In this document: positions 645 to 43,491 of the stretch, one piece after another
How the letters are laid out: each line of letters begins with the position of its first letter
How positions within the stretch are numbered: position 1 is the first letter of the stretch
Origin: a virus
Reading direction: 5' to 3' (one strand)
Length of the DNA: 64,000 nucleotides
IMG/VR virus record: IMGVR_UViG_3300028569_001145
Coordinates: 1-64,000 of that record
The notes under the pieces: model-generated
The model's input: only the letters and a program-made list of their open reading frames with translations
Told to the model about the DNA's origin: nothing
Database searches by the model: none
Made by a program: the position numbers and the translations under genes

Positions 645-1151
645 ATGGTTTTATTTACAGAACAAGAAATTCAAGAACGAGTTAAATCACTAGGCATTCA
701 GGTTTCGTACCAAGCCAACCCGGAAGGTAAGCCCAGAGTCATGATTGGAGTCTTAAATGGAGCATTTATGTTCTTTAGTGACTTAGTTAGGAATATGGAG
801 GTTGATTGTGAAATTGACTTCATTCAGGTTAAATCTTACCAAAACCAACAGCAGTTTGATATTAAACTTTTAAAGGATATCAACGTTGAAATTGCCGGGA
901 AAGATGTCTATGTAGTAGATGATATTTTTGATTCGGGTAACACTATGAGATACTTGATAACCCATCTTCAAACCAGGAAACCTAAGTCAATTACTCCGGT
1001 TACCTTATTCAAAAGTAATTATTCTTATATGGAAAACCTAATTTACGGGTTTGAGTTAGCTGAGGAGTATTGGATTAGAGGGTATGGGTTAGATAATGTA
1101 GATGGTACTAAGAGAAACTTACGACACGTGGAAGGAACTATTTTCGAATAG
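645..1151 (+). CDS. hpt: Hypoxanthine phosphoribosyltransferase-like protein
   Basis: GVLNGAFMFFSDL, PRPP-binding VVDDIFDSGNT, GYGLD, RNL. Confidence 0.9.
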   Translation: MVLFTEQEIQERVKSLGIQVSYQANPEGKPRVMIGVLNGAFMFFSDLVRNMEVDCEIDFIQVKSYQNQQQFDIKLLKDINVEIAGKDVYVVDDIFDSGNTMRYLITHLQTRKPKSITPVTLFKSNYSYMENLIYGFELAEEYWIRGYGLDNVDGTKRNLRHVEGTIFE

Positions 1152-1176
1152 TAAAGTGGGTTATGGGCTAGACAGA

Positions 1177-1185
1177 CTATTTATA
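1177..1185 (+). promoter_or_regulatory. Phage late-type promoter motif (C)TATTTATA, representative copy
   Basis: Found ~5-25 nt before ATGs at 1190, 2542, 9513, 11269, 23196, 29861, 31875, 42874, 44465, 47655, 50398, 53098, 59052 and 63875. Confidence 0.75.
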
Positions 1186-1189
1186 ATAG

Positions 1190-1999
1190 ATGGCATATGT
1201 TTATAGGCATATTAGATTAGATAAAAGAACCCCGTTCTATATCGGAATAGGATCTGACGAAGAGAAAAAATACTACCGTGCAAATACGAAAAGCGGTCGA
1301 AATAAAATTTGGAAAGACATTACAGATAAAACAGCCTATGAGGTGCAGGTAGTATTGGAGGGACTTACTTGGGAGGAAGCTTGCCTAAAAGAGGTTGAAT
1401 TTATAGAACTATACGGTAGGATAGACAAAAAAACAGGTACATTAGCTAATATGACGAAAGGCGGAGATGGTGTATTAGGCAGAGTAGATACAGAAGAAAG
1501 AAAACAAAAATGGAAAGAAAGCAGGAAAGGTTTTCGACATTCGGAAGCAGCCAAGCAGAAAATGAGTATGCAACATACCGGGAAAACACACTCCAGGGAA
1601 ACTAGGGAAAAGATAAGAGTAAACAAAAAACAAGATTGGCAAAACTTAAAACACCCCTTTAATAGCTTAGAATACAGGGAGCAAAAAAGAGAGCATATGA
1701 TTAGAAACAACCCAATGGCAAACCCGGAAATACGAACTAGGCATAAACAGGCTGTTGAAAAAAGAGAGTGGAAAGGAGGGACAGTTTTGAAAGACTTAAA
1801 TACAAAGCAAGTAACCTGTCCACACTGTAAAAAATCAGGAGGTTATATGAGTTTCAAGCAATTTCATTTTGATCGATGTGAAGCTTTTACTGGCATTAAG
1901 CATACAAAACCAGAATATACTTGTCCATATTGTAACAAAACTGGGAAAGGAGCTTCTAATATGCAACGGTGGCATTTTGAAAATTGCAAATACAAATAA
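1190..1999 (+). CDS. Free-standing GIY-YIG-like homing endonuclease with NUMOD3-like repeats and C-terminal Zn fingers
   Basis: YVYRH...FYIGIG, NMTKGGDG, HSEAAKQKMS/HSRETREKI repeats, CPHC/CPYC; own TATTTATA promoter at 1178. Confidence 0.85.
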   Translation: MAYVYRHIRLDKRTPFYIGIGSDEEKKYYRANTKSGRNKIWKDITDKTAYEVQVVLEGLTWEEACLKEVEFIELYGRIDKKTGTLANMTKGGDGVLGRVDTEERKQKWKESRKGFRHSEAAKQKMSMQHTGKTHSRETREKIRVNKKQDWQNLKHPFNSLEYREQKREHMIRNNPMANPEIRTRHKQAVEKREWKGGTVLKDLNTKQVTCPHCKKSGGYMSFKQFHFDRCEAFTGIKHTKPEYTCPYCNKTGKGASNMQRWHFENCKYK

Positions 2000-2017
2000 A
2001 ATTTCTTATATTAAAGT

Positions 2018-2524
2018 ATGTTAACAGCCAAGCAAATATTAGACCAAGGGATTGTAATCCCATCCCCCTATTCAAAACCAGCACAGGTTGGTATTGATTT
2101 ATCATTAGCATCAGTTCATAAATGCACTGCCGGATCTTCTGTCTACCAAGATAAGACTCATATTGACCCAACTGGGTTCTTTGAAGAGAAAACTTACATG
2201 GTTGATGGAAAGGAATGTTGGATGCTTGAACCAGGCACTTATGCAATTACCTTTAACGAAGGGTGTAAAATTCCTGCTAATGCAGCAGCATTTATTATAC
2301 ACCGAAGTAGTCTTTACAGGACAGGTACTTCAATCACCTCCCCGGTCTGGGATCCAGGTTTTGAAACTGAGAAGATGGGCACTGTTATGATTGTGAATGT
2401 TAAGCTCATAGTTGAAAGAAATGCAAGAGTAGCTCAAATGATTGTTCACGAAACACAAGAAGATGCTAACCTCTATCAGGGGCAGTGGCAGGGCGGTACT
2501 CATTCATGGGAAAAAGCAAAATAA
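2018..2524 (+). CDS. dCTP deaminase / trimeric dUTPase family protein
   Basis: GIDL, RSSLYR, VWDPGF, RVAQM, YQGQWQG motifs. Confidence 0.85.
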   Translation: MLTAKQILDQGIVIPSPYSKPAQVGIDLSLASVHKCTAGSSVYQDKTHIDPTGFFEEKTYMVDGKECWMLEPGTYAITFNEGCKIPANAAAFIIHRSSLYRTGTSITSPVWDPGFETEKMGTVMIVNVKLIVERNARVAQMIVHETQEDANLYQGQWQGGTHSWEKAK

Positions 2525-29812: not shown

Positions 29813-29860
29813 TAAACATTCTCGGAACCGGTTTGGGAAAGAACAGACTATTTATAATAG

Positions 29861-30646
29861 ATGTTAGTCTATAAAATAGTTGATTTACAAACGGGAAACG
29901 GGTATGTAGGAAAAACAACAAAAACTGTGGAGGAAAGGTTTAAGGAACACTTAAAACTATTGCATCTAAAGAGGCACCATAATCCATGGCTGCAAAACAT
30001 ATATAATAAAGATCCGAACCGGATTAGCACTATTGAAGTATTGGAGGATGGTATATCTTGTTTAGAGTTTTTAAATGAACGAGAATGTTACTGGATAGAA
30101 CAACAAGGTTCTTTCAATATAGCTAGAGGAGGAACTGGCGGAGATACTTTATCAAAACATCCAGATAAGAAACGTATTATGAAAGCGAGGTTAGAAAAGT
30201 ACCCAATGAAAAAAGGAAAAGATAATCCGACATACATACATTTAACAAAAGAGCAGGAAGAGTTATTAGAAGAGGTGTGGAATAACTTAGAGATACAAGC
30301 TATAAAATTCCTTGCCGAAAAAACAAATATTTCAAGGCATAAGTGTAAACAGTACTTGCTTGAAAAAGGATATACAATACCTAATAGGCACGAAGTACAA
30401 AAGAAAATGTTTAAAAAAGGCCTTATAAAAGGGTCTCGGGACCCTAATCTTACAGATGAGCAAATAGAGTACGTAAAAAAAGCTTACGTCGAAGACTGGA
30501 AGTCCTGTAAACAAATAGGTGTAGAATTAGGCTTCAAAGGTGAAGAAACAGCTCTAAGGATTATTAAAGAAGCAGGTCTGTTAAGGAGTACCGGAGAGTG
30601 GACTACTTATAAGAATTTGAACAGAGGCAAGAAAAAAGAAGTATAA
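29861..30646 (+). CDS. GIY-YIG homing endonuclease
   Basis: VYKI...YVGKT...RF..H, E..WI, NIARGGTGGD; HTH-like C-terminus. Confidence 0.85.
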   Translation: MLVYKIVDLQTGNGYVGKTTKTVEERFKEHLKLLHLKRHHNPWLQNIYNKDPNRISTIEVLEDGISCLEFLNERECYWIEQQGSFNIARGGTGGDTLSKHPDKKRIMKARLEKYPMKKGKDNPTYIHLTKEQEELLEEVWNNLEIQAIKFLAEKTNISRHKCKQYLLEKGYTIPNRHEVQKKMFKKGLIKGSRDPNLTDEQIEYVKKAYVEDWKSCKQIGVELGFKGEETALRIIKEAGLLRSTGEWTTYKNLNRGKKKEV

Positions 30647-42837: not shown

Positions 42838-42873
42838 CAATAGAGTTTTTGATTTTTGGACTATTTATATTAA

Positions 42874-43491
42874 ATGGTTAACATATCAAAGCTTAGAAAA
42901 TATCATTTCCTATACAAGACTACTAATCTTGTAAATGGGAAGTACTACTATGGAATGCATTCAACAAATAACCTTAAAGACGGTTATTTAGGCAGTGGAA
43001 AGTACTTATGGTATGCGATTAAAAAATACGGGAAAGAAAATTTTTACATTGAAATTTTAAAGTTCTTTGAAACAAGGGAAGCTTTAATAGAAGCAGAAAA
43101 GAAACTTGTAACTGTTGTCGAAGTTAATAATTCAAATTGTATGAATTTAAAACCCGGAGGTAAGGGGGGATTTAAAGACTCTAAACATAGGGAAGCTTTT
43201 GTTAATAGTATACCTGTAGATAAAAAAAGAGAATATGCATTTAAAAGACATAAACAAGGTGTTTTCGGTTTTAAAGGTAAAAACCATAAACCTGAAACTA
43301 TTGAAAAGATGAAGTTACATAAAGGTAAACAAGCAAAAGAAAAGAATTCTCAGTTCGGAACAAAATGGATTACAAATGAGATTGAAAATAAAAAAATAAA
43401 AGTTACTGATCAGATTCCAGAAGGATGGAGAGCGGGTAGAAAAATAAAGTTGGATTTTAAGCAAGAAGTTCGTATAATTATAGCAACATAA
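42874..43491 (+). CDS. Seg-like GIY-YIG homing endonuclease inside the tRNA cluster
   Basis: LYKTTN..NGKYY.GMH...DGYLGSG; NUMOD3-like HKPETIEKM; WITN...PEGW. Confidence 0.88.
   Translation: MVNISKLRKYHFLYKTTNLVNGKYYYGMHSTNNLKDGYLGSGKYLWYAIKKYGKENFYIEILKFFETREALIEAEKKLVTVVEVNNSNCMNLKPGGKGGFKDSKHREAFVNSIPVDKKREYAFKRHKQGVFGFKGKNHKPETIEKMKLHKGKQAKEKNSQFGTKWITNEIENKKIKVTDQIPEGWRAGRKIKLDFKQEVRIIIAT

Follow-up and report, generated by a model that had tools for sequence, protein, structure and literature searches.

An hpt-like sequence at the 5′ edge of a mobile GIY-YIG homing endonuclease cassette: a candidate autorepression operator in an uncultured lake phage

An hpt-like sequence between hpt and a homing endonuclease gene

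Why does a short non-coding sequence that spells the most conserved motif of hpt, a hypoxanthine phosphoribosyltransferase-like gene, stand directly upstream of a neighbouring homing endonuclease gene (HEG)? The question was raised by IMG/VR record IMGVR_UViG_3300028569_001145, a 104.7 kb viral contig of an uncultured phage from lake water, of which we analysed positions 1 to 64 000 (the window, to which coordinates refer unless another sequence is named). A preliminary description of this DNA had placed a second set of V-G-Y-G-L-D codons between the stop codon of hpt and the endonuclease gene, here termed HEG1, and its coordinates for the resident motif, the copy and the endonuclease start proved exact on re-reading of the sequence. 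We found the copy at the edge of a mobile cassette that encodes a free-standing enzyme and, judging from sequence comparisons, it probably marks the target of that enzyme. Our preferred reading, to which we assign a probability of roughly 0.45, is that the copy is a target-derived sequence that most likely serves as an autorepression operator in the style of I-TevI; by that analogy, it may let the enzyme switch itself off.

The window opens within thyA, followed by an open reading frame (ORF) of 98 amino acids (aa), hpt, a 38 nt spacer, the 269 aa ORF of HEG1, an 18 nt spacer, dcd and polA. The features of the locus are listed below, where HEG-free denotes a locus without the endonuclease.

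645..1151, + strand: hpt (hypoxanthine phosphoribosyltransferase-like), 168 aa; PF00156, E 1.4e-20; 80 phage homologues in IMG/VR
1058..1151, + strand: endonuclease-linked hpt 3′ module, (A/N)EEYWIRGYGLDNVDGTKRNLRHVEGTIFE*, 30 aa recurring on different hpt backgrounds
1071..1094, + strand: resident W-I-R-G-Y-G-L-D codons, TGG ATT AGA GGG TAT GGG TTA GAT
1152..2016, + strand: mobile cassette of ~865 nt (hpt-like element, promoter-like motif, endonuclease gene, 3′ spacer), delimited by HEG-free joints
1156..1173, + strand: hpt-like element GTG GGT TAT GGG CTA GAC (V-G-Y-G-L-D), non-coding, putative operator or target-site relic
1177..1185, + strand: CTATTTATA, predicted late-promoter-like motif (enrichment and position), 4 nt (ATAG) ahead of the ATG
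1190..1999, + strand: HEG1, free-standing GIY-YIG homing endonuclease, 269 aa (phrog_314, NUMOD3, structure model)
2000..2017, + strand: cassette 3′ spacer AATTTCTTATATTAAAGT, conserved (16/18 identical to locus L005)
2018..2524, + strand: dcd, dCTP deaminase/dUTPase-like, 168 aa; PF22769, E 6.8e-14

The copy belongs to a mobile cassette

Related loci were compared with and without the endonuclease. Loci L001–L004, L108–L112 and L114–L116 lacked it and carried hpt genes 65–72 % identical to that of the window; in such HEG-free relatives the hpt stop codon is followed by a single T and the ATG of dcd, or overlaps dcd. The closest matched pair was L112, without the endonuclease, and L113, with it (L113 is the same locus as L005 and L030, and L018 is its contig). 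Their flanks were 97–99 % identical and their sole structural difference was a clean 745 nt insertion between the TAA stop and T-ATG. This insertion starts GC-GCTGGTTATGGCTTAGAC-AA-CTATTTATAATAGATG, in codons GC GCT GGT TAT GGC TTA GAC AA CTATTTATAATAG ATG, and therefore opens with its own version of the copy.

An HEG-free form of the window phage was also represented. A 397 nt contig from a 2024 freshwater metagenome (X15) covered positions 941–1054 at 96 % identity, continued with 98 unlike letters, and then matched 2015–2199 without any difference. The loose end of another contig (X14) read ...TAT ATT ACG GGT ATC TTA CAC GAC GAA TAG T ATG, such that an hpt ending in YITGILHDE* abuts dcd. 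An exact search of IMG/VR for the HEG-free junction of the window phage returned nothing. Presence and absence at one site together with a co-inherited flank (L112/L113, X15 and X12 joints) identify the cassette as mobile. The intergenic sequence of the window was missing from all HEG-free relatives compared, and the copy therefore belongs to the endonuclease insert, at its 5′ edge. The preliminary description had named a shared intergenic sequence in such relatives as grounds for refuting its reading, and that outcome was not observed.

The window and L005 were 87–93 % identical over 1758–2117, which runs from the 3′ half of the endonuclease gene through the spacer and ~100 nt into dcd, compared with 53–55 % in the hpt 3′ end, indicating that both cassette types share a recent right half. 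The dcd gene itself was mosaic: its first ~100 nt (2018–2120) showed 90–93 % identity in the comparison of the window with L005 and 100 % in the L112/L113 pair, and were followed by a patch at 57–76 % identity (2118–2234), a pattern that fits a recombination boundary inside dcd. In the lake campaign that yielded the window, X12 record 4 was an HEG-free relative at 80–86 % identity in which hpt abuts dcd; it shared lake samples with the phage that bears the endonuclease, so that potential recipients were present. Elsewhere, in a different hpt lineage (L138, 3000–3060), the gene after hpt encodes an HNH/zinc-ribbon endonuclease and is preceded by TATATTTATAA and a GGGTT...AACCC hairpin; its leader contained no hpt-like copy. 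Endonuclease genes thus seem to have landed repeatedly in the 3′ flank of hpt.

Relatives outside these metagenomic records were remote. The single GenBank DNA match of the genome was a short thyA stretch of a Flavobacterium phage, and GenBank phages included no close DNA relative, with hpt protein matches below 45 % identity and endonuclease matches below 37 %.

Likeness of the copy to phage hpt alleles

The copy lies beyond the hpt stop codon (TAG, 1149–1151) and encodes V-G-Y-G-L-D in a frame other than that of hpt. It ends 3 nt (AGA) before CTATTTATA and 16 nt before the ATG at 1190. As plain DNA its match to the resident hpt (12/15) was not significant, and all endonuclease leaders of the genome yielded 12/15 matches within ±3 kb. 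A DNA repeat of this quality is common by chance, so that the support for the copy comes from its match at the peptide level together with the comparison of loci. Among random 38-mers of window composition, 0.15 % encoded a 5 aa match to the resident hpt and 0.011 % a 6 aa match to hpt or the hpt of a relative. The pattern of GYGLD codons, 1–6 nt and CTATTTATA occurred twice across IMG/VR outside near-identical records, once in the homologous cassette of L018 and once as an in-frame chance match within a 663 aa ORF. The copy is neither a chance occurrence nor resident intergenic DNA.

We then considered which hpt allele the copy resembles. In 39 distinct phage hpt alleles the residue preceding GYGLD was V in 30, I in seven and R in none, and the modal codons were GTA GGT TAT GGT TTA GAT. 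The consensus of the copies, GGT TAT GGS YTA GAY, equals the modal allele at every non-wobble base and is matched fully by the allele of L131. The earlier remark that the copy looks more wild-type than the gene beside it was thus borne out. These comparisons point to the VGYGLD-coding stretch of an hpt gene as the origin of the 18 bases at the 5′ edge of the cassette, and we infer that this stretch forms part of the recognition sequence in HEG-free phages.

Two other explanations of the intergenic sequence were rejected. Reading the copy as a stranded start of dcd (TT-ATG-G.. against T-ATG-TTA-ACA) can be aligned only with two gaps and is much less convincing than the match to GYGLD. An RNA hairpin masking the start codon, as in T4 late genes, was not conserved (z +0.5 in the window and −0.5 in L031). 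In L005 alone (2808–2890 of that contig), pairing of the copy, GCGCUGGUUAU, with AUAACCGGC of the endonuclease ORF gives a long-range hairpin around the start codon (z −3.3), a feature that L031 and the window do not conserve.

HEG1 and the shuffling of its nuclease domain

Profile searches matched HEG1 to phrog_314 ('homing endonuclease', E 2.5e-19) and, above the Pfam cut-off, to NUMOD3; Pfam PF01541 was not matched by HEG1 itself but was matched by the L005 enzyme and by homologues. The protein comprises a GIY-YIG domain (aa 1–90), a NUMOD3 helical linker (~100–191) and two beta-beta-alpha zinc fingers (~205–265). An AlphaFold model built with 71 homologues had a predicted local distance difference test score (pLDDT) of 82.8, and the best structural match of aa 1–90 was the I-TevI catalytic domain (1LN0; Z 8.9, root-mean-square deviation 2.4 Å over 82 residues), followed by the GIY-YIG domains of UvrC and EndoII. 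Among the 71 homologues, Y5, Y17, E68 and N87 were invariant and R30 nearly so. The C-terminus was modelled as two beta-beta-alpha units with CxxC...H...C, for which Foldseek matches to tandem zinc fingers were weak, and a sequence search of PDB with HEG1 gave nothing meaningful. By its modelled fold and its modular layout of nuclease, linker and DNA-binding domain, HEG1 qualifies as a GIY-YIG homing endonuclease, and the comparison with I-TevI drawn in the preliminary description is apt.

A group I intron-encoded endonuclease was also considered and rejected: hpt and dcd are complete (168 aa each) and the cassette is intergenic. Rfam returned no family at E up to 1 over positions 500–2700.

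The enzymes of the other cassettes combine this C-terminus with different nucleases. The 230 aa enzymes carry another N-terminal type (PF01541; HEG2, a second endonuclease of the genome, is distantly related at 41 % aa identity) and a linker that is 39 aa shorter, yet their last 100 aa are 86–90 % identical to those of HEG1 (90 % in L005), whilst the N-terminal domains of HEG1 and the L005 enzyme look unrelated. A third N-terminal type (P0009) bears the same C-terminus. The conserved domain (window 1700–1996; L005 3240–3534; P0003–P0009) consists of two CxxC...H...C units and ends ...WHFENCKYK, and it was found paired with at least three GIY-YIG N-terminal domains and two linker lengths (enzymes of 269, 230 and 223 aa). 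Sequence comparison indicates natural domain shuffling on a constant DNA-binding module. A finger of the WHFENC type also terminates the HNH-type endonucleases L063, L066, L084 and L092.

Conservation of the copy across cassettes

The copy was present in 4/4 endonuclease cassettes found at the hpt|dcd junction:

Window and L028 (same population), 269 aa type: GTG GGT TAT GGG CTA GAC
L029, HEG1 type, 81 % identical, frameshifted: GCG GGT TAA GGC TTA GAT
L005 (the same locus as L030 and L113), 230 aa type: GCT GGT TAT GGC TTA GAC
L031, TARA contig, 230 aa type: GTT GGT TAT GGC TTA GAT

Its 15 nt core contained no insertions or deletions (indels), whereas the flanks did (4 vs 2 nt before, 3 vs 2 nt after). 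The GYGLD frame has six wobble-type positions, namely the five third codon bases and the first base of the Leu codon, and all four variable core sites coincided with these (hypergeometric P ~0.011); with the V codon included, 5/6 variable sites were of this type (P ~0.013). Between L005 and L031 the core was identical at 14/15 positions, compared with 65 % third-codon identity in the endonuclease genes (binomial P ~0.02). The copies were at least as alike mutually (11–14/15) as each was to its own resident allele (9–12/15), indicating descent from one ancestral copy without re-copying; gene conversion from the resident hpt was rejected on the same figures as a source of the wobble pattern. Enzymes with HEG1-type N-termini at other sites (L006–L009, L039 and the X13/X14 contigs) had leaders without the copy. 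The copy therefore appears to track the DNA-binding domain and the site, not the nuclease, although site and DNA-binding domain always co-occurred and their contributions are inseparable.

This variation bears on whether the copy might instead be an inert scar, the main rival to the operator reading, which we regard as somewhat unlikely. The ancestral cassette would have entered hpt right after GYGLD by illegitimate repair, at or near its own cut site, thereby joining GYGLD to the promoter, and later shifted ~60 nt downstream into the hpt|dcd spacer with 18 nt of its old left flank, which would be functionless. The position of the copy at the extreme 5′ edge of the insert agrees with such a history, as does the frame of the copy in L005 and L031, which runs GYGLD-(N/D)-Y-L-stop through the promoter motif like a truncated gene end. 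Illegitimate repair of double-strand breaks is also a recognised route to new sites (PMC2988022), and the window and L029 copies have diverged at a neutral rate (11/15). However, a relic that had been non-coding ever since the cassettes last shared an ancestor should vary randomly, whereas the observed variation is wobble-type (P ~0.01) and the core, unlike its flanks, is free of indels; L005 and L031 agree better than the neutral expectation; two rare events are required; an endonuclease inside hpt was found in 0/80 hpt loci; and the stranded piece is an internal motif located beyond the stop codon, not a gene terminus in its original setting.

The promoter-like motif

The motif CTATTTATA was observed 11 times in the window, always on the + strand, against 2.3 expected, and the 104.7 kb genome contained 17 occurrences on the + strand against a single one on the − strand. 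Of these 17, 15 precede an ORF of at least 50 aa whose start lies 4–23 nt downstream; no fewer than six endonuclease-like genes are among the ORFs so placed, as are several large ones of 545–630 aa, presumably structural. Most endonuclease genes of the genome were preceded by it. The gap to the ATG is exactly 4 nt at six genes (window 1177–1192, 2529–2544, 29848–29863 and 42861–42876; genome 70839 and 81861), where leaderless or nearly leaderless mRNAs would be expected, and 8–23 nt at nine others. Sigma-70-type promoters and intrinsic terminators were no more frequent than in shuffled sequence. From its enrichment and position, CTATTTATA behaves like a phage late-type promoter, and the hpt-like 15–18 nt are placed 2–3 nt before it in all four cassettes.

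That placement admits a reading in which the hpt likeness is coincidental and GGTTATGG..AGAC is an upstream site of the promoter, of an activator or −35-like kind. The copy is indeed located where a −35-type element would be, and the leader of HEG2 (29826–29863), whose gene at 29861 is not beside hpt, has cGGTT-TGGGaaAGAaCAGA before a 19 nt AGACTATTTATAATAGATG identical to that of HEG1, the partial likeness upstream running GGTT-TGGGAAAGAAC / cGGTT-TGGGaaAGAaCAGA / cGGTT-TGGGaaAGAaC. Nothing similar was found upstream of the other 15 + strand CTATTTATA sites, however, and a 6 aa hpt match in a 38 nt spacer (P ~1e-4) within a pattern nearly unique in IMG/VR would be left to coincidence. The HEG2 similarity amounts to eight bases with a gap (rough P 0.001–0.006, uncorrected for multiple testing); it may have arisen by chance or reflect a decayed relic of the same element. 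A purely promoter-associated element is, in our judgement, very unlikely.

HEG2 (29861–30646) is a second GIY-YIG endonuclease, with a different, helix-turn-helix-like C-terminus. Over the first six codons its DNA is almost the same as that of the L005 endonuclease gene, although elsewhere the two genes are saturated (third-position identity ~40 %), which suggests exchange of promoter regions between cassettes.

A foreign hpt 3′ end linked to the 269 aa enzyme

The resident hpt differs from those of its HEG-free siblings at its 3′ end. Two proteins, P0122 and P0123, are ~97 % identical to the window hpt over the first ~125 aa and then end ...ENEAFLVGYGLDGKGGFKRNKSYITGIL(H/Y)DE (169 aa), matching the loose end of X14, which marks them as endonuclease-free siblings of the window hpt. 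P0122 and the X14/X15 contigs diverge from the window from ~1055 onward, and the HEG-free siblings read VGYGLD. Conversely, the hpt genes of L029, P0124 and P0125 all end in the 30 aa of the window, (N/A)EEYWIRGYGLDNVDGTKRNLRHVEGTIFE. The upstream hpt part of L029 is L005-like (...MEDLMFGFEL) and the adjacency of its module to the endonuclease gene was observed directly; P0124 and P0125 represent two further hpt backgrounds, whose adjacency to an endonuclease we infer from contig sizes equal to those of the HEG1 homologues P0001 and P0002. The left boundary of the module falls at the invariant YGFEL codons (~1057). These patterns suggest that a 30-codon module travels with the 269 aa enzyme over at least two, probably four, hpt backgrounds, as would be expected if co-conversion spanned the interval from a cut site in the 3′ end of hpt to the endonuclease gene. 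Within the module, the window and L029 agree at all 35 nt (1071–1105) that encode WIRGYGLDNVDG whilst the remainder differs at 14/59 sites, which for this single pair hints at DNA-level constraint on the resident, presumably uncut allele.

The proposal that the resident allele had been recoded for immunity received divided support. An R preceding GYGLD occurs in this module only, a foreign hpt end is linked to the 269 aa type, and the HEG-free siblings read VGYGLD, all as the proposal would have it. As a general rule it does not hold, since cassettes of the 230 aa type, with the same DNA-binding domain and copy, adjoin VGYGLD alleles. The first Gly codon is GGG in 4/4 resident alleles beside endonucleases compared with 5/39 alleles overall, but these four come from a comparatively G+C-rich clade and amount to only two or three lineages.

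Is the copy an operator?

The mechanism that we propose begins with the enzyme cutting the hpt 3′ end of a co-infecting phage. Repair would then copy the cassette together with the donor hpt 3′ end, which would leave the WIRGYGLD... module linked to the 269 aa enzyme. Within its own genome, the zinc-finger domain would bind the copy, 2–3 nt from CTATTTATA, and damp transcription of its gene, and the copy would escape cutting for want of a suitable cleavage sequence at the right distance. Precedents exist for the wobble pattern and for the co-conversion: wobble positions of a coding target are tolerated by homing endonucleases, as in the case of I-AniI (PMC3943268), and co-conversion of flanks is known for SegG, SegF and others (PMC2988022).

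Several observations weigh against an operator derived from an hpt target. The wobble statistics are post hoc and derive from four cassettes (two or three lineages). The window and L029 cores match at 11/15, no better than neutral (68 % third-position identity), and the L029 copy has TAT changed to TAA. The L029 endonuclease is moreover frameshifted (OGWM01008195.1, ~880–905, after ...CPHCKKSGG, leaving a 227 aa ORF), reflecting either a decaying cassette or an assembly error, and gene and copy may accordingly both be decaying there. HEG2, which has another DNA-binding domain, shows a partly similar leader, a likeness that could represent a promoter-associated element or a decayed relic. In the window, the resident core differs from the copy consensus at a single base (GGG vs GGT), so immunity cannot rest on the core alone. 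The resident 18 bases of L113 are those of HEG-free L112, meaning that this allele is not a substrate or that the target lies elsewhere, for example at an hpt|dcd junction destroyed by the insertion. Lastly, the linked module would be accounted for just as well by a junction cut followed by leftward resection.

The last two points lead to a different target altogether, the hpt|dcd junction, which the insertion would split as in classical immunity; the module would have been co-converted by leftward resection to YGFEL and the copy would have some other role or none. L112 and L113 differ by the insertion alone, so that only the junction tells a possible substrate from an immune genome. The module boundary lies in a conserved stretch, as expected of crossover resolution, and the 3′ half of the endonuclease gene with the first ~100 nt of dcd is the most similar tract between the window and L005. 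We nevertheless consider a junction target quite unlikely: it accounts neither for the hpt-like copy nor for the wobble pattern of its conservation, and junction sequences bear no clear likeness to the copy.

In sum, the wobble-patterned variation, the indel-free core and the position of the most decayed copy beside a frameshifted gene (L029) tip the balance slightly towards a functional binding site. As for the claim that the copy marks the target, its cassette-borne nature, its conservation in four loci and its VGYGLD-like sequence all held, and the target itself stays a prediction from sequence. The fuller formulation, of a free-standing phage homing endonuclease with a portable copy of its recognition sequence as autoregulatory operator, varying as the target codons wobble and kept with the zinc-finger domain through at least two nuclease exchanges, is slightly more tentative than the operator reading itself.

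Free-standing endonucleases are far commoner in phage genomes than intron-encoded ones, and little is known about their control. Were the copy an operator, the regulatory logic of I-TevI would extend to free-standing elements in an unrelated phage group. The cis copy would also disclose, from sequence alone, what an uncharacterised endonuclease family targets, and a fragment of a neighbouring gene at an endonuclease promoter could be sought as a route to predicting targets. Even as a scar without function, the copy would preserve the first entry point of the element in hpt. The locus provides an unusually complete natural data set, with matched siblings with and without the endonuclease, a co-converted gene end on several backgrounds and nuclease shuffling, and its tandem zinc-finger DNA-binding module with a candidate 15 nt site may interest nuclease engineers.

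Comparison with known systems

The closest parallel is I-TevI, encoded in the td group I intron of phage T4. Its operator is 15/20 identical to the homing site, overlaps a late promoter and is bound but poorly cut (Edgell et al. 2004; PMC2988022, PMC3943268), and a T4 review describes operators solely for intron-encoded enzymes (PMC2988022). HEG1 shares the GIY-YIG fold, the layout of nuclease, long linker and DNA-binding domain with zinc-binding elements, and a sequence resembling its presumed target at its own late-type promoter motif. It differs in that its gene stands free rather than within an intron; its DNA-binding part is predicted to consist of two beta-beta-alpha zinc fingers instead of a minor-groove helix and helix-turn-helix; the copy abuts the promoter motif where the I-TevI operator overlaps it; and binding and target are predicted from sequence. 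The host, unlike T4, is an uncultured lake phage with its closest GenBank DNA match in a Flavobacterium phage. To our knowledge, target-mimicking operators have been demonstrated only for the intron-encoded I-TevI of T4.

In its mobility the element resembles SegB, SegF, SegG and MobE of T-even phages, known for intronless homing, co-conversion and marker exclusion: the gene lies between two conserved genes, is polymorphic for presence and absence at one site, and is co-inherited with a flanking segment, here the hpt 3′ module, across backgrounds. Unlike in those systems, the predicted cut site is within ~100 nt of the insertion and nuclease domains have apparently been swapped on a constant DNA-binding domain. 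We know of no report of SegB, SegF, SegG or MobE with a target copy at its own promoter.

Mobile endonuclease ORFs that carry a foreign gene terminus are also found in fungal mitochondria (mORFs), as in Allomyces atp6. There too, a foreign 3′ end of the target gene travels with the endonuclease and a fragment of the target gene is stranded beside it. At the present locus, by contrast, the stranded piece comprises six codons of an internal motif and is situated ahead of the endonuclease gene, following the replacement end, instead of beyond that gene, and the linked foreign hpt end is a feature of the 269 aa type, cassettes of the 230 aa type having no replacement end. Free-standing GIY-YIG homing endonucleases with co-conversion are a kind already known, to which HEG1 belongs; the form with a cassette-borne, target-like copy at the promoter motif, seemingly retained through nuclease swaps, appears to be undescribed.

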